Virus record (IMG/VR): IMGVR_UViG_3300047471_000949
Reading direction: 5' to 3' (one strand)
DNA length: 64,000 nt
Source of the DNA: a virus
Taxonomy: Duplodnaviria > Heunggongvirae > Uroviricota > Caudoviricetes
The notes under the pieces are model-generated. The model saw only the letters and a list, made by a program, of their open reading frames with translations. It had not been told where the DNA came from and searched no databases. The translations under genes were made by a program, and so were the position numbers. Of this stretch, positions 17,328 through 25,732 are shown in pieces (within the stretch, counting starts at the first letter, position 1; every line of letters begins with the position of its first letter).

Positions 17328-17732
17328 ATGATTAGCTGGCCCTGGACATCTAAAAGCCAACACAATAAAGAACTTGATCGAGCCTATCGGAACTCCCAGC
17401 TTGTCCTGGAAGCCGAAGTTAAAAAGCTTCAGGAGGAATATCACGAGCGCTGGGAACCGTTATTACAAAAGGCCATTCAACTAAAGCCCCGGCTAAATGC
17501 CCAACGTGATTCTTTCGTCCTGCATATCGGAATAGATCGATATATGGTCGAGATGGTTGCCTCGCATAATGATGAACACGTCTGGGAATATTTCGTGGAG
17601 GAAGTTGCCGTTCATCTAAAGCGACAGCTGCTTTCGCTAAACTTTTCCGGGCTATATCGGCTGGCGAGAGAAACCGAACATCGATATCCCACACAGCTCT
17701 GGCGCGGACCAGATAATATACCTCCCATCTAG
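17328..17732 (+). CDS. hypothetical protein
   Basis: 134-aa ORF, AGGAG SD. Confidence 0.7.
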   Translation: MISWPWTSKSQHNKELDRAYRNSQLVLEAEVKKLQEEYHERWEPLLQKAIQLKPRLNAQRDSFVLHIGIDRYMVEMVASHNDEHVWEYFVEEVAVHLKRQLLSLNFSGLYRLARETEHRYPTQLWRGPDNIPPI

Positions 17733-20700
17733 ACCGAACAGATTCCGATATTGTCGGGATCGTGCTTCTGTCCGCCCCCGTGGCTTCCCTGCGTTGCTGG
17801 CAACTGATCGGGATGATGTTGCGGATTGGGCGGAGAATGAGAGCGATCGCCTGATCTAACGTCGGTTGCCTGTCTCCGGGCCGGGTCGCGATGTGAACCT
17901 CCGTGGCTGGGAACCGCCGGAGCTACTGGCTGGTGGCCGGTAGTCATCCCCGGTTTTTTATGATCGGCCGCCGGTCCCCAACCTCCGGGAGGAGTGCTTG
18001 GTTTAGAATAATCTCCAAAACCTCCCGCCTTCGCTGCGGCTGCTCCGCGTTCCTTATCTCCCGTAGAAGCTGGATAAAGAGATTTTTCGGGGGGCTTGGT
18101 TTCTTTCAGTTGGGCCTGGTGTGGCCGATCCATTGCCGCCGGAGCCGGAACTGGTGATTCCCCAGCAAGACCGGTTCCCCCCGACATAAAGTTCTTGAAT
18201 TTTTGCCAGTGCGACGGCGGAGGCAGACTGTCGGGAAGTCCCCCGAATCTATCCCTTACCGTCGAAGCAGTATCGGGAAGTCCGCCAAAGCGATCCTGGA
18301 CAGTTGGCTGTTTGGTGGCAAACCGGGAAGTTATGTCTTCCCCTCCTGCTTTCATTCCGCCCTGCCAGTCGGTTGACGGGAATTTCTGGCGTTCTTCCGG
18401 GCTTAGCTTAGTAAGCAGCGAGCCATAGGGTTCGTCTGCTCCGTAGCCTTCTCTCGCGAGTCGTTGTTGCCGTTCGCGATACTCGCGGGCCCCCTTCATC
18501 TGCATATCTCCATATAGTTCCCCGTGGCTTTCGACAAATTGCCCGGAAGCTTTTTCCGCGGCATAGTTAGGATCACCTTGCGAACCCTGATCAGTAAAAC
18601 CTCTTACCAAATTACCTCCGGCTATGGCTGAATCAATGTCCCCGCTAATTACTCCAAAATCCGCTCCCCTCGCCATTCTAGGATTATCCAGCGAGGTTAT
18701 TTGGTGTTTAAGCGGTCCATAAAACTGATTATTTCCGGTTCGCGACAGATAGTCCCGTAGTGTTAAATTAGGGTCTTTTTGTTTCATCATATTCATCCGA
18801 TTAAATAACGATTCGGTAACTCGTTGGGCGTCGCCCTTCCCAGCTTGTTCGTGGGAAACTAGAGCAACTACTGCCTGACGAAGTTTTGGGTCTCTCTCCA
18901 GTTCGGCCTTGATCCAGCCACGTTCTCCGGCCAGATAATTTCCTTTTGTCCCGGCTGCTGGCTGGGAATCTCCGAGAAGTTGAGAGGCCGGAGAATAACG
19001 TTTATCCCCAGTATAGGGATTAAACTTCCCGGACTGCCCAGGATGTGGCATTTGCAGGGTTTCTCCGAGCGAAGCTCGGCCTGAGCTACCCCTAACATCT
19101 TCGATATTAGTAGACGGCCGAAAGCTAGAATACGCTCCCAGGTCAGAATGCATAGCATCTTGTTTTTTGGTCGTCTCCTTACGAGCCGCTAGGTCTTGAT
19201 CGCGTTTCCAACCAGCAAACTCGTGAGGATTAAATTTTCCAGGATGATCTGCCCGGAACGCGGCCATGTCGGCTTCAGAAATTGAATGATGGAGTGCAGG
19301 AAGATCAACAAGTTTTTGCCCGGACGAGGGCTGACCGGAAGTAGCCGTGAGCGCTCCCTGGGTTATCCCCGAGACATGATCATCGGTCAGCATTCCCAGC
19401 TTTCGAGCCATTGATAGCCGGCTGTTTCCGGCAATAACCTGATCCACTGCCGCCTGGGTTGCTGCGGAATCTCCGCCCTTCGCCGCATCCGAGATGGCTC
19501 GTATTTCTTTATCGGAAAGTTCCTTCGCAAGTTGGGGCGGAAGTGCAGCCTTTGCCGAGGAGAAAGCTTTATCTGAGGACATAGCTTTGCTTGCGGGGCT
19601 AGCATCCTTTGTGGCGTCGACTTTGGCAGCGGCTGGCGGACCAGCGGCAGCCGCTGCTCCTTTATAGTCAGCCTCGGCCTGTCCATGAATGGACTTTTTA
19701 TATTCGCCGAGTTCTTCAGAAGACATGCCGGATTGCCGGAACTGGCCCCTGGCGCCGCTTTCTGGATCATATCCGGCCATTGTCTGCGATGAACCTTGCA
19801 CCCACGGAGCCAGCCGCTGATAGTGCATCCGGTCACCATAACCAGCTGCCGATGATATCCAGGTTCCTCCCCAGATATACTTGTTGTCGGGATAAAGAAC
19901 TTTTCCGCGTTCGTTAACCGATTGATAAAGTTTTTCATATTCCTTGAAGCCGGGGCCGAAGCCGGTGTGCGGAATGGCTTTACCCTTGTCATCATAAATT
20001 CGAACATCCATCGCAACTCCGCCGGGATGATTGGTAGTTCCGGTTGATCGCGCATCGTGTCCGGAAATCATCTCAACTCGATAGCCGGGAGGTAAGTCTT
20101 TGGAAGATTCCTTGATTAGATGAACAAGAGAAGCATCGACTCCTTTGATCTGGCCTTGTTGGATGAAGAACCGCTCGGTGCCGGCTTTTAACGAGGCGGG
20201 ATCACCCTTGAATGCTCCAGGACCGCCTCCTTCGTAACCGCCAGTTCCAGTTCGGCGTGGAGCATCTGGCCCTCCTGGAGATACTCGTGAGAACGCGCCG
20301 GGGCCAACTCCGCGACGGAATGTCGGTCCTCCTGGAACTGCTCCAGTTCCACGCCCTCCCTCACCTTCTCCCCTCCCGCTAAAGTCGGGTTGTCTTCCGG
20401 CAGTAATCGACTTCATCCATTCGATCAGATCAGTTCCTGTAGCTCCTTCAGGAGGTCCGTAGGTTGAACCAAACAGCGAAGGTCCGCCAGTTTGTTGTTG
20501 GCTTCCTTGTTGTGTTGCTAAAGGCGCAAGTATATCGGGAGTGGTCTTTCTAGTAGCCGGGGTGACCTCTCCCTTCCCAAACATCTTCGATAACAGCTGG
20601 GGAAGAACAGGACCGATTGAGCCTTGGGGTTTTCCTCCTCCGCCTGGAGCGGCTGGAGCTGGAGCGGCTGGCCCGGCTGGCTTATTGCCAAAAATTGGTC

Positions 20701-21808
20701 CGAGAATCGGATGGTTTTTGTAAAAATCTTCAGCTCCTTGTCTTGAGAATAACGAACCCAGTGTAGAATCGATCTTATCCTTTTTTGGCTCGGTTCGCTG
20801 AGCTGGTCCTGAAGGAGGAACTGTAGGTCGGCTGGAAGGTTCGCTACCCGGCGGTCCAGTATCCTCCGGCCCATAGTCAAAACCTAAACGTCTTCCTAGC
20901 TCCTGGGTTTTTCGTTTTAACGAACCTGGAGAAACAACAGCTCCGGAATTGAAATAAACCGACCATTCTGGATGTTTTGACAACATGTCACGGACTGCAT
21001 GCTGGGCGGCTCCCTCCGCCCCCTCAGTCTTCGCCCATTCGCGAATCTGAGGCATCATATCATCCATTTCTTTTTCAATTTCTTTATGATATTTTACATA
21101 TTCTATTCCATGAACGGCTAGAGCCCCTAGAAAAGCTCCAGGAAAGGCGTTCAGCAGGCCAGAAGTGGCGGTGACGGCGAGGCCGGCCAGCTTGGAAGCC
21201 AGCGCGCCGCCCAGCGCTCCCTCGGCTACATCTTTTATACGAGAATGGCTATCTTTATCGTTGTCGCGATCAGCATCTTTTCGGTCATCATCCTGTTCAG
21301 TGGCTGCCTTTTTTTTAGAGGAGGTGATATCTTCCTTTAGCGAAGCGATGGTTTTATCAAAACGCGATAACCGGCTATCCAGCGATTTGTATTCCCGTTC
21401 CATCCGGTCAGAACGTTGAACAATTTTAGTAAGCGAGGCATCCTGGGATTTTAATTTAGCCTGGACATACTCAAACGAGGCAAGGGTGTTCTTATTGACT
21501 ACCCCAATATAATCGATTATTGAACCGTGTAAGCGTTCGAGGTTTTTTACCAAGTCATCGCCGGATAGTCGAAACGCAGGTTTTCCAGCCTTTTCAAGAT
21601 AAGGCGCCTTTATATCAACTTTCGACGGGTCTTCTGAGGGAGCCCGATCTGGCTGATGTTCGGGGTCGTCCGGTTCGGTGGGGTCTGTTGGATGAAAGCT
21701 ATCAGCCGAAAAAGTTGTCGAGGAGGGTTCTGGACTCCCCAGGTTTTTTGCGATAAGTCCTATCGCCTCGGCACCTTTTCGAATCAGCGCGGCCCCTGTA
21801 TCGGACAT
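17729..21808 (-). CDS. tape-measure/baseplate-hub-like (gp29-like) protein with peptidase M15 and cell-wall hydrolase domains
   Basis: position after gp26/gp51; N-terminal coiled coil and TM-like segment; SGHDAR...HPGGVAMD...WGGTW...DRMHYQ; LVSHE...VTESLFNR. Confidence 0.7.
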   Translation of the reverse strand: MSDTGAALIRKGAEAIGLIAKNLGSPEPSSTTFSADSFHPTDPTEPDDPEHQPDRAPSEDPSKVDIKAPYLEKAGKPAFRLSGDDLVKNLERLHGSIIDYIGVVNKNTLASFEYVQAKLKSQDASLTKIVQRSDRMEREYKSLDSRLSRFDKTIASLKEDITSSKKKAATEQDDDRKDADRDNDKDSHSRIKDVAEGALGGALASKLAGLAVTATSGLLNAFPGAFLGALAVHGIEYVKYHKEIEKEMDDMMPQIREWAKTEGAEGAAQHAVRDMLSKHPEWSVYFNSGAVVSPGSLKRKTQELGRRLGFDYGPEDTGPPGSEPSSRPTVPPSGPAQRTEPKKDKIDSTLGSLFSRQGAEDFYKNHPILGPIFGNKPAGPAAPAPAAPGGGGKPQGSIGPVLPQLLSKMFGKGEVTPATRKTTPDILAPLATQQGSQQQTGGPSLFGSTYGPPEGATGTDLIEWMKSITAGRQPDFSGRGEGEGGRGTGAVPGGPTFRRGVGPGAFSRVSPGGPDAPRRTGTGGYEGGGPGAFKGDPASLKAGTERFFIQQGQIKGVDASLVHLIKESSKDLPPGYRVEMISGHDARSTGTTNHPGGVAMDVRIYDDKGKAIPHTGFGPGFKEYEKLYQSVNERGKVLYPDNKYIWGGTWISSAAGYGDRMHYQRLAPWVQGSSQTMAGYDPESGARGQFRQSGMSSEELGEYKKSIHGQAEADYKGAAAAAGPPAAAKVDATKDASPASKAMSSDKAFSSAKAALPPQLAKELSDKEIRAISDAAKGGDSAATQAAVDQVIAGNSRLSMARKLGMLTDDHVSGITQGALTATSGQPSSGQKLVDLPALHHSISEADMAAFRADHPGKFNPHEFAGWKRDQDLAARKETTKKQDAMHSDLGAYSSFRPSTNIEDVRGSSGRASLGETLQMPHPGQSGKFNPYTGDKRYSPASQLLGDSQPAAGTKGNYLAGERGWIKAELERDPKLRQAVVALVSHEQAGKGDAQRVTESLFNRMNMMKQKDPNLTLRDYLSRTGNNQFYGPLKHQITSLDNPRMARGADFGVISGDIDSAIAGGNLVRGFTDQGSQGDPNYAAEKASGQFVESHGELYGDMQMKGAREYRERQQRLAREGYGADEPYGSLLTKLSPEERQKFPSTDWQGGMKAGGEDITSRFATKQPTVQDRFGGLPDTASTVRDRFGGLPDSLPPPSHWQKFKNFMSGGTGLAGESPVPAPAAMDRPHQAQLKETKPPEKSLYPASTGDKERGAAAAKAGGFGDYSKPSTPPGGWGPAADHKKPGMTTGHQPVAPAVPSHGGSHRDPARRQATDVRSGDRSHSPPNPQHHPDQLPATQGSHGGGQKHDPDNIGICSV

Positions 21809-21834: not shown

Positions 21835-22080
21835 ATGATCAAAAGCTATCGAGAAGTTATCAAAGAATTCTCTAACGAACAAAACAAGAAACAAGTTAGA
21901 CGTGGGTTCCGGTTGGGTGCGTTAGGTGCGCTGGCTGGAGGCGCGCTTGGAGCCATGGGAGGAGGAATTCCTGGAGCGCTTGGCGGAGCCGCGCTTGGAG
22001 GAGGTATTGTCACCGGCATTGCTCATGATGTTTCGGCCTGGCGAAATCGTCGTCGCGACAAAGTTCGGCTATCTAAGTAG
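21835..22080 (+). CDS. glycine-zipper protein with capsid-targeting-like leader
   Basis: MIKSYREVIKE resembles T4 CTS MKTYQEFIAE; tandem GxxxG run. Confidence 0.7.
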   Translation: MIKSYREVIKEFSNEQNKKQVRRGFRLGALGALAGGALGAMGGGIPGALGGAALGGGIVTGIAHDVSAWRNRRRDKVRLSK

Positions 22081-22084
22081 AATA

Positions 22085-22270
22085 TTAGTCGCCCAGCGCC
22101 AGTCCTGAATTTTTAGCAGCTTCTTCCTCGATAGCGTTTGCGATCTGTTCCTTGAGCAGGTCCAGTTCGAACACTACCATATTTTCCAATTCAGCTATCG
22201 AATACTTATGATAGTAACTAAGTTCAAAAATTGTCTTATAGTACGCCTGTAGAGTCCGTCCGGCCGTCAG
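22085..22270 (-). CDS. gp51: gp51-like baseplate/tail assembly protein, no canonical start (probable -1 frameshift extension of gp26)
   Basis: LQAYYKTIFELSYYHKYSIAELENMVVFE matches the gp51-like motif; missing from the ORF track. Confidence 0.8.
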   Translation of the reverse strand: MTAGRTLQAYYKTIFELSYYHKYSIAELENMVVFELDLLKEQIANAIEEEAAKNSGLALGD

Positions 22271-23085
22271 AACGAAAAAAAATCTGATAGCTTATCTAAG
22301 ACTATCTTCCTTTCGCTGCCCTTCTTATTCTTATATTCGATAACATAATGCAGATGTGGCAACTTTTCCAGGAATTCCCTTATCTTATCATAAACAGCGA
22401 TTGGTAGCTCATCCAGAAACTCCTTGACTTCGGCTACTGGTAAGTCCTTGGGTCTCGAAACGACTCCATTGGCCTCGATAGATTCCAGTGAGTTCTGGAT
22501 CAGCAGTTCCACCAGTTTTTCTCCGGAAGCCGCGAGAAACTCGGCATTGGTATAAAGCGACGCATCTGGATACTTCATCCGAACCGTAATATTGTTGTTG
22601 GGGATTGTTATAAGCGGAGAAATCCCTTCCGGCCAGACAACCTCGACCTTGTTCAGGTCTATGTCGAAGCTATACGAAGCTGGTTCTTTCGGAAGATCAT
22701 TTCTGGAAGCTGCTTTCTGAACCAGTTCGGGTTGGTTTTTCCAATTCTCGACCGCCTCATAATACTCAGCCATTTCCTCGTTATCCTGATAGGTGGCCTG
22801 GATTATATTAGAAACCGAAAGCGCGCGAAGCTTGATAAAAGCCGCCTCGATATCGAACAGTGCCAACTCTTCCACCTTGATTCCAGGAGTTACGATGGCA
22901 TTGTTGATAACTTGCTTGATTCCATTCAGAATCTCGATATTCCGTTCTTCTGGGGACCCGGTCGACTCCTTTGCCGTAAGCAATATCTTCTCGTCCTTCG
23001 CCCGAAGCTGGCGTAACTTTATTACTGTTTTAGTCGACGGAATGGTAAAATCATAGAGAATAGAATCGATCTTAGGCAGGATCAT
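22267..23085 (-). CDS. gp26: baseplate hub assembly protein gp26
   Basis: MILPKI...FTIPST...EKILLTAKES...LFDIE..FIKLRALSV; ends LSDFFSF. Confidence 0.9.
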   Translation of the reverse strand: MILPKIDSILYDFTIPSTKTVIKLRQLRAKDEKILLTAKESTGSPEERNIEILNGIKQVINNAIVTPGIKVEELALFDIEAAFIKLRALSVSNIIQATYQDNEEMAEYYEAVENWKNQPELVQKAASRNDLPKEPASYSFDIDLNKVEVVWPEGISPLITIPNNNITVRMKYPDASLYTNAEFLAASGEKLVELLIQNSLESIEANGVVSRPKDLPVAEVKEFLDELPIAVYDKIREFLEKLPHLHYVIEYKNKKGSERKIVLDKLSDFFSF

Positions 23086-23102: not shown

Positions 23103-23546
23103 TTATTTATACATATCCATGAGTTTTTTATAGGCATCTTCAGTCATTCCAGAAGTTTGAGAGTCGACATTTTGCCAAAGAGCGTCGAAAAGCTTGTCCT
23201 TATATTCGATGCGTTTTTTGTCTATTTCTTTTAAAGTGCAGTCGGACTCTGGTGCGCCCCATTTGATTGAATTGTCAGGTTCAATATTCTTAGTAACTAA
23301 GGAAAAATCCGCTTCAAGCGGAGATTCGTAAATTATTTGAGTAGTTTCAATACGTTCCAGGATATCGTCGACAAAATCCTGAGGAAAATTAAAGAGTTTT
23401 GCCACCGTCTTGAACATTTCCACCACAGGGTCATAATCTGCCTTATTATCTGTGGGGTCATGATGGAGAATAGTTCGGAAATCTGCATAAAGTTCTGACA
23501 GTTCTGGCATTTTCTCAGACTTCTTAGCTTTTTTGATGATTTTCAT
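23103..23546 (-). CDS. hypothetical acidic protein
   Basis: 147-aa ORF, GGGAG SD. Confidence 0.7.
   Translation of the reverse strand: MKIIKKAKKSEKMPELSELYADFRTILHHDPTDNKADYDPVVEMFKTVAKLFNFPQDFVDDILERIETTQIIYESPLEADFSLVTKNIEPDNSIKWGAPESDCTLKEIDKKRIEYKDKLFDALWQNVDSQTSGMTEDAYKKLMDMYK
23104..23111 (-). promoter_or_regulatory. T4-type late promoter
   Basis: exact TATAAATA on the minus strand before gp26. Confidence 0.75.
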
Positions 23547-23640: not shown

Positions 23641-23862
23641 TTAGATTGCTTCATCTTTTGCTTCATACATATTTAGCCCGAATCCAGCCAACTCTAGATC
23701 ATCCTCATAAAGAGTAAGCATTTCTTCCACCTCGTTCAGTTCTTCCATAGTCATTTCAAGTGAGAGTTCGAAGAGGGTTGCTATAGCTTCCAGATAGCGT
23801 TCAACTCTGGTTAATGACGGTTGTATCGCGCGGCTGCTTTTAGCTTTTACTATTTTTTTCAT
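23641..23862 (-). CDS. hypothetical acidic protein
   Basis: 73-aa ORF, ATGA-coupled to gp54. Confidence 0.65.
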   Translation of the reverse strand: MKKIVKAKSSRAIQPSLTRVERYLEAIATLFELSLEMTMEELNEVEEMLTLYEDDLELAGFGLNMYEAKDEAI

Positions 23863-24584
23863 GTCTTATTCTCCGTTTGGTTTATTATTGTGGGGGTTCC
23901 GCTGGTTTGAGGTGCATTGCTTCCTGCAGATATTCCTGCGGGGACTCCTGCTCCAGCCCCTCCAAAGGCTGTGGCGGGAAGCGGTTGTCCCTCCTCGACC
24001 TTTTCTCGATACCAATCCATATAGGTGAATATTACAGTTAGCTTAAGAATATCACGAGTTGATGACCAAGTCAAGGCAATAGATGGAATCTGGAGCGGAT
24101 ACATTCTGCGAGGATGCCAGGTCTGAACCTCATCTCCAAATCCATTCAGCAGCGTGATCATTCCATCCACCACATAATCATCCTTATAGGCAAACTCATA
24201 GGGGTAAACTCCATCAGCAGAGGGAGAGACAATTCCTCCCTTCATATTAAAGTTGTTGACGAGGTTTGCCCAATCATGAAAGAAGCGGAGATTGTCTCCA
24301 GCTGCATCCGCATAAAAAACTACCTGTATCTCCTGAAAATTGGGGAAGATCGGCTTTTGCTCGGAGGCTCCATAACCATAGCGAAGGATATTGACTGTCG
24401 TAAAACCTACTCCAACAAACTGAATGGATTCCGCATAGAACTCGAGAAACCGTGAGATATTGTAATAGGTTCCGAACGGATTGAGTCCCAGCGGAATGGG
24501 AAACCGGATGCGATAGCGATCAGGCTTGGCGAAGCCTCCCGCGACTACCGAACGAAATTGATTGATATCAAACTGTGCAGGCAT
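23859..24584 (-). CDS. gp54: baseplate tail-tube initiator (gp54/gp19-like fold)
   Basis: FDINQFRSVVAGGFAKPDRYRIRF...YGYG...IQVVFYAD. Confidence 0.75.
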   Translation of the reverse strand: MPAQFDINQFRSVVAGGFAKPDRYRIRFPIPLGLNPFGTYYNISRFLEFYAESIQFVGVGFTTVNILRYGYGASEQKPIFPNFQEIQVVFYADAAGDNLRFFHDWANLVNNFNMKGGIVSPSADGVYPYEFAYKDDYVVDGMITLLNGFGDEVQTWHPRRMYPLQIPSIALTWSSTRDILKLTVIFTYMDWYREKVEEGQPLPATAFGGAGAGVPAGISAGSNAPQTSGTPTIINQTENKT

Positions 24585-24603: not shown

Positions 24604-25314
24604 TCAGCGATCATGAAACGCTGCCTTCCTTATTGTATTAACTGAATCTTGCCAAACATGGTATTCAGAAGACTTCATAAAATTGGCCAACGGCATAAAG
24701 AGAACTGAATTCCACTTGGGCGGGGAAATAACCATAAGTCGTGATCGAATATTAGAAAGTAGATACTTTTTGATACACGGACGAAAGTAGGCATACTTGG
24801 ATGATCCCGAAAGGATTTTATAGGAAATGATCAGGCGAGTGTGTTCGTCGGCTCGGTGTGTCGAGACAACTGACGATAGTGCCATCATCAGCCTTGCGCG
24901 TTCGACCGGAGGCAGATAATGCATGTTCATTCCAGTCATGGAGTTACCCGCGATTGTAAACGGAAACACCAGGGGAAAAGTATCGTAGTAGGGCAGCGTT
25001 CCCTTCCCCTTCGGATCATAATTGAAGAAGATCATCTGTCCAATCATTCGTCGGTTGACCTGGGATGTTGTCTCCTGCGCATTCTCCATGACCTGTTTGC
25101 GAGCCTCGGACGGGGTAATGCTATCTTTTTTAGCGGCAGCAGTAGCTAATGCATCGGCCGAGGAGGGGGCCGTAGTCTTCTTGGTCTGTTCGGCGGCTTG
25201 TCCTTGCCGGGCAAGTTCTCGTATCTGGGAGAGGTAGAACTCGAGTGAACCTTTTCCTGAGGCGGAATGTTCGCGTCGAAGTCGAGCGATATAGTCCTCG
25301 AGTGACTCAGCCAC
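24604..25314 (-). CDS. gp2: DNA end protector protein gp2
   Basis: FFNYDPK...LPYYDTFPLVFP...GMNMHYLPP. Confidence 0.9.
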   Translation of the reverse strand: MAESLEDYIARLRREHSASGKGSLEFYLSQIRELARQGQAAEQTKKTTAPSSADALATAAAKKDSITPSEARKQVMENAQETTSQVNRRMIGQMIFFNYDPKGKGTLPYYDTFPLVFPFTIAGNSMTGMNMHYLPPVERARLMMALSSVVSTHRADEHTRLIISYKILSGSSKYAYFRPCIKKYLLSNIRSRLMVISPPKWNSVLFMPLANFMKSSEYHVWQDSVNTIRKAAFHDR

Positions 25315-25732
25315 GCTGTGGTATCCCTAATTCAATCTCAGTCAGTATCTTGAAACTCCAACCTCGTTGTTCACAATAACGGCGGGCAGCTTCCCACTTT
25401 TTAAGGTTGATGGCAAAGGTTGCGCTTTCCTTCAGGAAGCGTCGCATTGTTGATTTATGCACAGGTTGAACAGTTTCTTTAGCTGGTTTTATCTCAACCA
25501 GGTAAGTATGTCCTGTGTTATCTTTCACACGAAAATCAGGAAAGTATCGATGAATATTATTATCCAGCGGAGATTGATAGGGCACAGCGATTTCCTCAGA
25601 CGACCACTCAATAATATTCGGATCATTATCAAGTTTCATCATATACTTTAACTCCCAGCTTGACCTCCACACAATATTTGTTGGGTTGCCTCGGTACTTG
25701 GAGGAGTTTTTAAGTTTAAATAAACCTTTCAT
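25307..25732 (-). CDS. gp4: head completion nuclease gp4 (TnsA-like)
   Basis: KYRGNPTNIVWRSSWE...WSSEEIAVPY...HRYFPDF. Confidence 0.95.
   Translation of the reverse strand: MKGLFKLKNSSKYRGNPTNIVWRSSWELKYMMKLDNDPNIIEWSSEEIAVPYQSPLDNNIHRYFPDFRVKDNTGHTYLVEIKPAKETVQPVHKSTMRRFLKESATFAINLKKWEAARRYCEQRGWSFKILTEIELGIPQRG

Follow-up and report, generated by a model that had tools for sequence, protein, structure and literature searches.

A probable -1 ribosomal frameshift at the gp26-gp51 tail assembly chaperone locus of a soil T4-like myovirus, predicted from comparative evidence

The DNA analyzed here, referred to as the window, is a stretch of 64,000 nucleotides (nt) assigned to a virus of the class Caudoviricetes (IMG/VR record IMGVR_UViG_3300047471_000949). 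On its minus strand, a gene similar to T4 gene 26 overlaps an open reading frame (ORF) that resembles the C-terminal part of T4 gp51. We propose that the two constitute one tail (tape-measure) assembly chaperone (TAC) gene of a soil T4-like myovirus, whose parts are probably joined by a -1 ribosomal frameshift into a gp26-gp51 fusion. DNA of this phage was found in soil and rhizosphere metagenomes, with no RNA data set among the runs containing the locus. Its cultured relatives are distant: a nucleotide match was not obtained, and isolates share 34% protein identity at most. The locus comprises the following features, with protein lengths in amino acids (aa):

22267-23085, minus strand: gp26-like short chaperone form (TAC-N), 272 aa, read in the 0 frame up to the stop codon TGA at 22269-22267
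22276-22282, minus strand: predicted slippery heptamer U_UUU_UUU, in X_XXY_YYZ phase, two codons ahead of the 0-frame stop
22085-22282, minus strand: -1 frame extension corresponding to the gp51 C-terminal module, 65 codons plus the stop codon TAA at 22087-22085, start-less
22085-23085, minus strand: predicted long form (TAC-NC, the gp26-gp51 fusion), 333 aa

The gp26-like ORF ends with the codons CTA TCA GAT TTT TTT TCG TTC TGA, in which a run of eight T residues (T8; 22282-22275) contains the heptamer T_TTT_TTT. The -1 frame is closed upstream by a TAA codon (22294-22292); from there it runs without a stop through 68 codons (22291-22088), of which 65 follow the slip. No ATG, GTG or TTG codon was found in the -1 frame of the window ahead of the conserved part of the module. 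A slip at the heptamer would create the junction ...LSDFF/FVLTAGR... (junction peptide LSDFFFVLTAGR), and the 333-aa long form would be the resulting product. The initial annotation had described this gp26 end with its T run and in-phase heptamer, and our analysis agrees with it down to the coordinates; the -1 frame that it reported, gp51-like, start-less, closed upstream by TAA and open for about 65 codons, is likewise present in the sequence. Only one gp26-like ORF and one gp51-module ORF were distinguished within the window.

Both parts of the locus could be assigned to protein families of T4-like phages. The gp26-like ORF matches PF12322 (T4_baseplate) over residues 11-270 with 130.8 bits (cut-off 24.5; E 8e-38), as well as phrog_150 (E 2e-38). 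Its product shares about 22% identity with T4 gp26 and 30-37% with cyanophage and IMG/VR relatives, and carries an insertion of approximately 30 residues. The -1 ORF matches phrog_634, the 'baseplate hub assembly catalyst' family of gp51 (E 6e-13), the match being confined to the C-terminal half of the profile; the window module is 23-40% identical to those of more distant IMG/VR relatives.

The initial annotation had proposed a survey of T4-like genomes for conserved slippery heptamers at gp26 ends. Such a survey was carried out on 87 loci, among them those of phages P-HM2, Cr30, phiM12 and Mosig; 80 loci were obtained by a profile-based IMG/VR scan (27-37% identity to the window), and gp26 identity to the window did not exceed 37% in any of the 87. 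With the addition of Vibrio phage R11Z, Pseudomonas phage Milchi and five relatives from the clade of the window, the set of related loci rose to 94. An in-phase T_TTT_TTY heptamer together with a gp51 module in the -1 frame was identified in 93 of these 94 (87/87 of the surveyed loci), a recurrence that, judged by the sequences compared, is far above chance. In P-HM2, Cr30, phiM12 and the pelagiphage Mosig, NAT TTT TTY encodes the terminal (D/N)FF of gp26 and gp51 lies in the -1 frame; in R11Z (Schizotequatrovirus) and Milchi the heptamer and the -1 module are arranged as in the window. Within the window clade the heptamer is present in four of five relatives, and the closest relative with available DNA (L088, 67% identity) has T_TTT_TTC, a T6 run. 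The 0-frame stop codon lies 0-3 codons past the heptamer in 86 of the 87 loci. The tightest arrangement seen is that of Milchi (L094:2490-2510), where GAT TTT TTC TAA places the stop codon right after the heptamer.

Codon usage at the heptamer is more constrained than the encoded residues. The residue preceding the two phenylalanines is variable in the 87 loci (D in 46, S in 31, A in 6, N in 3 and T in 1), yet the wobble position of its codon is always T. The first phenylalanine codon is TTT in 87/87 loci, against a background of 69% TTT in the same genes, and the second is TTT in 43 and TTC in 44. Given the amino acids, the probability of the two fixed wobble positions is approximately 10^-5.4 over 18 clusters below 50% identity. 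Positions X and Y are thus fixed while Z is free, which is the pattern demanded by tandem tRNA slippage. By this measure, the heptamer is conserved in nucleotides beyond what the protein requires.

The same 333-aa fusion could be produced by transcriptional slippage, if RNA polymerase added one U on the T8 run and the edited mRNA were translated. Runs of U7 and longer are recognized polymerase slippage sites (PMC4066793), and the window, with its T8, has a run of this kind, which could support polymerase slippage as well. Across the 87 loci, however, the run is T6 in 44, T7 in 40 and T8 in only 3, with C as the seventh base in half of them. A T6 run is short for polymerase slippage, and its presence in half of the family, as well as in L088, argues against this process as the family-wide mechanism. 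Selection is seen on the X and Y positions of the heptamer and not on run length. Furthermore, the PRFect paper (PMC10885494) gives the 'other mechanism' of the 2022 study of T4-like TAC genes, discussed below, as two separate genes and not as polymerase slippage. We consider it quite unlikely that transcriptional slippage accounts for the arrangement; polymerase slippage may contribute at the T8 run of the window.

Homopolymers are also error-prone in sequencing and assembly, and the initial annotation had named an assembly error within one continuous ORF as a finding that would overturn its proposal. If the T8 run were a miscalled T9, the one extra T would yield a continuous 333-aa ORF; alternatively, the locus could be a frameshifted pseudogene. 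The suspected error was not borne out: the T8 run occurs without indels in contigs of four independent soil or rhizosphere assemblies, which have no gaps across it and differ from the window by single-nucleotide polymorphisms elsewhere. The two-frame arrangement is shared by the 93 loci mentioned above, and no protein of fused length was found among 105 database homologues. A sequencing artefact or gene decay is therefore hardly credible.

The peptide encoded in the -1 frame is conserved from its very beginning. In 35 diverse loci (the window and 34 others) the modules align without gaps from the first post-slip residue through column 26; positions F1, F2, F19 and E39 do not vary at all, and Y15, H25 and E33 hardly do. 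This bears on a further explanation, according to which the gp51 module is made alone, as a protein of about 60 aa initiated at a non-canonical codon such as the CTG at 22270-22268, and no fusion is formed. In public records gp51 is indeed a separate small coding sequence (CDS), and 65 of the 87 loci have some ATG, GTG or TTG among the first 12 codons past the T run. The positions of these starts in the -1 frame vary (4 to 12), however, and almost none is accompanied by a Shine-Dalgarno (SD) sequence. No canonical start precedes residue 12 in the window and in 22 of the 87 loci, and neither a late-promoter motif nor an SD sequence was found ahead of the window module. Independent initiation does not fit a peptide whose gapless conservation begins with the codon immediately behind the run, leaves the invariant wobble T residues unexplained, and is at odds with T4 gp51, in which the module is fused to a gp26-like domain. 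We regard it as very unlikely.

The annotated lengths of gp51 also count against a genuine small gene. In GenBank the gp51 CDSs are 30 to 63 aa long or missing, and are separate from gp26; we attribute this range of lengths to arbitrary choices of start codon. A ribosomal-slippage join was not annotated in any public T4-like record examined, so the contention of the initial annotation that the gp26/gp51 pair is mis-annotated as two genes holds for every one of these records. In the GenBank record of Acinetobacter phage Octan, gp26 and gp51 are both named 'tape measure protein assembly chaperone'.

Phage T4 itself encodes the two chaperone forms separately, the short one in gene 26 and the long one in gene 51, and these genes are divergently transcribed. 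T4 gp51 (249 aa) has a PF12322 domain at residues 1-201 (E 4e-52), then the phrog_634 module at residues 147-246. With a hidden Markov model derived from the predicted fusion proteins, T4 gp51 residues 113-246 form a single domain alignment that runs through the junction (dFFyvalshesle against DVFKLLVNPDEIF), and the -1 extension of the window is colinear with T4 gp51 residues ~197-246. The long form is therefore a conventional protein in Straboviridae, with 1380 records. No heptamer was found at the gp26 end of T4, Octan, KFS-EC, 44RR, RB16 and Pm5461, which represent six Straboviridae genera with a separate long gp51. Other in-frame heptamers within gp26 of T4 and RB16 were dismissed, as their -1 extensions comprise merely 9-19 codons. 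In Escherichia phage RB16 (L100), the genes of gp48, gp54, gp51, gp26 and gp25 lie on one strand, with the long form directly before the short one, in contrast to the divergent pair of T4.

The surroundings of the gp26-gp51 locus contain the following features:

17729-21808, minus strand: tape-measure-like protein, 1359 aa, a designation based on its location and size, an N-terminal coiled coil and a weak M15 match
21835-22080, plus strand: opposite-strand 81-aa ORF that separates the gp51 module from the tape-measure-like gene
23104-23111, minus strand: late-promoter-like motif TATAAATA (T4-type), situated about 19 nt ahead of the ATG of gp26
23859-24584, minus strand: tube-fold protein (gp54/gp19-like tail tube initiator), matching phrog_45 (E 3e-21) and PF23849 (E 1.6e-5, slightly under the family cut-off)
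24604-25314, minus strand: gp2-like DNA end protector, matching phrog_429 (E 7e-47)

The order gp2, tube initiator, gp26, gp51 and tape measure protein (TMP) is common to the window, Cr30, phiM12, Mosig, Vibrio phage R11Z and Milchi; in the window, the tube-fold gene and gp26 are separated by two additional small ORFs (147 and 73 aa). The initial annotation had placed the gp26/gp51 pair between a tube-fold gene and a tape-measure-like gene. This order stands, but the genes are not adjacent, because these two small ORFs and the opposite-strand 81-aa ORF intervene. The position of the tube-fold gene is occupied by a gene annotated as 'baseplate-tail tube initiator' or 'tail tube' in Vibrio phage R11Z, Mosig, phiM12 and Milchi.

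The tape-measure-like protein is the presumed client of the chaperone. It had no match to a TMP family in the profile search, and in Cr30 and phiM12 its positional counterpart carries the annotation tape measure. Its residues ~588-664 gave a sub-threshold match to Peptidase_M15_4 (E 0.029) that covers nearly the full profile. The protein may embed a cell-wall peptidase, and relatives are annotated as 'peptidase' or 'tail lysozyme domain'.

The TATAAATA motif occurs at 11 sites in the window against 3.9 expected, a number reached in none of 100 shuffles (0/100), and this excess suggests T4-type late promoters in a soil phage. The copy at 23104-23111 is a putative promoter of the gp26-like gene, and no copy was found from the gp26 start down to the gp51 module.

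Two further ORFs of this region deserve mention. The 81-aa ORF encodes a glycine-zipper-like segment (GALGALAGGALGAMGGG...); it has weak matches only, to TraT and EACC1 (E ~0.003), and a tblastn search against five loci of the window clade revealed no homologue. Upstream of the gp2-like gene lies a 141-aa ORF (25307-25732, minus strand), the position of which is taken in the P0007 contig by a gene for a 146-aa product with PF08722, the N-terminal domain of a Tn7 TnsA-like endonuclease. A mobile nuclease gene may be located here, within the tail module.

The similarity of the gp26-like protein to known tail assembly chaperones was examined at the level of structure. The AlphaFold2 model of the protein has a predicted local distance difference test (pLDDT) score of 93.5. 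In an exhaustive structural search, residues 1-100 of this model matched 3fgx (Z 8.0), the HK97 TAC 2ob9 (Z 7.0; 85 residues, root-mean-square deviation 4.1) and YqbN 3klu (Z 6.5), the next structures having Z of 4.4 or less. When the N-terminal domain was modelled alone, a Foldseek search of the PDB returned 3fgx and 2ob9 among its three best hits, at modest scores (E 0.3-0.5, TM 0.46-0.54), and 3klu as number 22. The same domain matched seven clusters of the AlphaFold database named tail assembly protein or chaperone, again at modest E values (7e-3 to 8e-2), and one of these clusters is of the P2 E / Mu gp41 type. The whole gp26 model gave no Foldseek match in the PDB, and a sequence search with the gp26-like protein found no match among solved structures. 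Profile searches with the whole protein identified PF12322 only, with no match to the Pfam TAC families (lambda gpG/gpT, P2 gpE and similar); the N-terminal domains of 37 family members, scanned at E values up to 10, also gave PF12322 and no Pfam TAC family. The structural matches are coherent and their scores modest, and on the models the balance leans towards a TAC fold of the gp26 N-terminal domain. A complex prediction for the gp51 module with the tube-fold protein gave no usable answer (score 0.00), both chains being poorly folded without alignments.

The proposed mechanism is as follows. Most ribosomes would terminate at the TGA codon (22269-22267) and release the 272-aa short form. A minority would slip back by one base, with two tRNA-Phe on the UUU UUU of the heptamer (22282-22276), and would then read 63 more codons in the -1 frame, giving the 333-aa long form, which ends in the C-terminal module of gp51. 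If lambda G/GT is a guide, the tape-measure-like protein would be coated by the gp26 part common to both forms, the extra gp51 module would link this complex to a tube or hub component, and both chaperone forms would depart before the tail is completed. The signal with its phase and conservation, the homology of both parts and the colinearity with T4 gp51 are observed; the occurrence of the slip, its frequency, its ribosomal nature and the binding partners of both parts are inferred.

Heptamers of this kind are known to be shift-prone. The sequences U_UU.U_UU.C and U_UU.U_UU.U gave more than 0.1% shifting in Escherichia coli without stimulators, and the H_HH.U_UU.Y class was among the most efficient with a pseudoknot (PMC4066793). 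Candidate stimulators are present in part of the family. A stable hairpin begins 5-7 nt past the heptamer in some clades only (P-HM2, Cr30 and L035; z about -3.3 to -3.5), that of P-HM2 (L003:3205-3225) being formed by GCCCTC...GAGGGC. An SD-like 4-mer is located within -20 to -5 of the heptamer in 57/87 loci. In many of the loci L008-L087 a conserved E-G-L is encoded with GAR GGN, which yields GAGG or AAGG some 10-14 nt ahead of the slippery heptamer. An SD-like element 10-14 nt upstream has the spacing that stimulates -1 shifting in dnaX. Constraint on the protein and constraint on the RNA are indistinguishable here.

Several observations weigh against a ribosomal frameshift in the window. 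The 70 nt downstream of the window heptamer fold worse than shuffled sequences (z +1.7), no consensus RNA structure was found by RNAalifold in the window clade, and the SD-like GAR-GGN present at -10 to -14 in many relatives is absent from the window, which has D-K-L at this place. One locus of the 94, L090 (a Logan contig whose gp26 is 48% identical to that of the window), has lost the heptamer: its gp26 ends with GAT TTC TTC CTC TTC TGA (1387-1404), while the -1 module is retained without a start codon ahead of the conserved part. Either the heptamer is not strictly indispensable, or this contig is defective. A separate long gp51 gene may also lie beyond the 64-kb window, and the authors of the 2022 study may favour another route to the long form. 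Finally, the frameshift interpretation is supported by comparative evidence only. As a separate observation on L090, only a T_TTC single-tRNA slip remains possible there, unless the contig contains errors or the gene is decaying.

Taking these points together with the evidence above, we put the probability that the window carries a ribosomal -1 frameshift in a gp26-gp51 TAC gene at about 0.72. The view of the initial annotation that gp26 and gp26-51 are the T4-like equivalent of lambda G and GT gains support from the codon pattern, the gapless -1 peptide, the start-less loci, the colinearity with T4 gp51, the lack of a heptamer in phages with separate genes 26 and 51, the gene order and, at modest scores, the resemblance of the N-terminal domain to TACs. 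A wider reading combines three propositions: that a true tandem-tRNA -1 shift takes place on U_UUU_UUY without a conserved stimulator, that the one-gene state is ancestral in the T4 superfamily and was split in Tevenvirinae-type phages, and that polymerase slippage forms a second layer in T8 variants. This combination is tentative and rather unlikely to hold in all its parts. If it were true, and if the mechanism was left unsettled by the 2022 paper, the codon-level evidence for a tandem-tRNA slip would be new.

The concept as such is not new, contrary to what the initial annotation had implied. To judge by the title under which it is cited, the publication by Vladimirov, Gautam and Davidson (Virology 2022;566:9-15, PMID 34826709, doi 10.1016/j.virol.2021.11.003) had already identified the TAC genes of T4-like phages. 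Most literature searches for gp26/gp51 frameshifting were empty, and this work became known through two citing papers. PRFect cites it for T4-like phages that do not frameshift but have, next to the short TAC gene, a longer fused one, and the paper on phage Adele (PMC12846349) cites it for poly-T -1 slip signals in T4-like TAC-N genes. The accessible part of the Atkins 2016 review contains no mention of gp51, T4-like phages or cyanophages. The concept having been published in 2022, the window is a further, divergent soil example and no discovery. Its contribution is a divergent soil lineage, together with a codon-level survey of many loci in which ribosomal slippage is favoured over transcriptional slippage. 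The two-gene annotation also has practical consequences, as it affects gene counts, core-genome analyses and proteomics searches.

Among known systems, the window is closest to the T4-like TAC genes (gp26/gp51), with which it shares the PF12322 part and the phrog_634 module, the position upstream of the tape measure gene and, as the 2022 work is cited in the phage Adele paper (PMC12846349), a poly-T slip signal where the short gene ends (3′). T4 and the other Straboviridae examined differ in that their long form is a separate full-length gene and no heptamer is present, whereas the window has one gene with a -1 extension.

The 'short gp51' of cyanophages, pelagiphages, rhizobiophages and vibriophages is another close counterpart, since it consists of start-poor ORFs of 30-63 aa directly after gp26. 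In the records of these phages gp26 and gp51 are two independent genes, and the source of the window is soil and rhizosphere metagenomes rather than marine isolates. Cyanophage gp51 was reported to be without the first ~200 residues of T4 gp51 (Sullivan et al. 2010, PMC3037559). These N-terminal residues would seem 'missing' because the long form is, in our interpretation, a gp26-gp51 fusion.

The best-known counterpart is lambda gpG/gpGT. Both systems have two overlapping frames upstream of the tape measure gene and downstream of the tube gene, an X_XXY_YYZ heptamer a few codons before the first stop and a second frame that is start-less; the short and long products, which are predicted for the window, would have a common N-terminal part. 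The gp26-like protein of the window differs from gpG in being about twice its size and having extra alpha/beta domains, and its heptamer is of the U_UUU_UUY type, whereas that of lambda is G_GGA_AAG. Xu, Hendrix and Duda are said to have described in 2004 that the -1 frameshift is conserved in genes of tail assembly chaperones, and P2 E/E+E' and Mu gp41/42 are reportedly comparable. The -1 shift in tail-chaperone genes is among the most conserved recoding events of phages, and T4 long seemed an exception; the gp26/gp51 pair, as published in 2022, fills this gap in TAC frameshifting.

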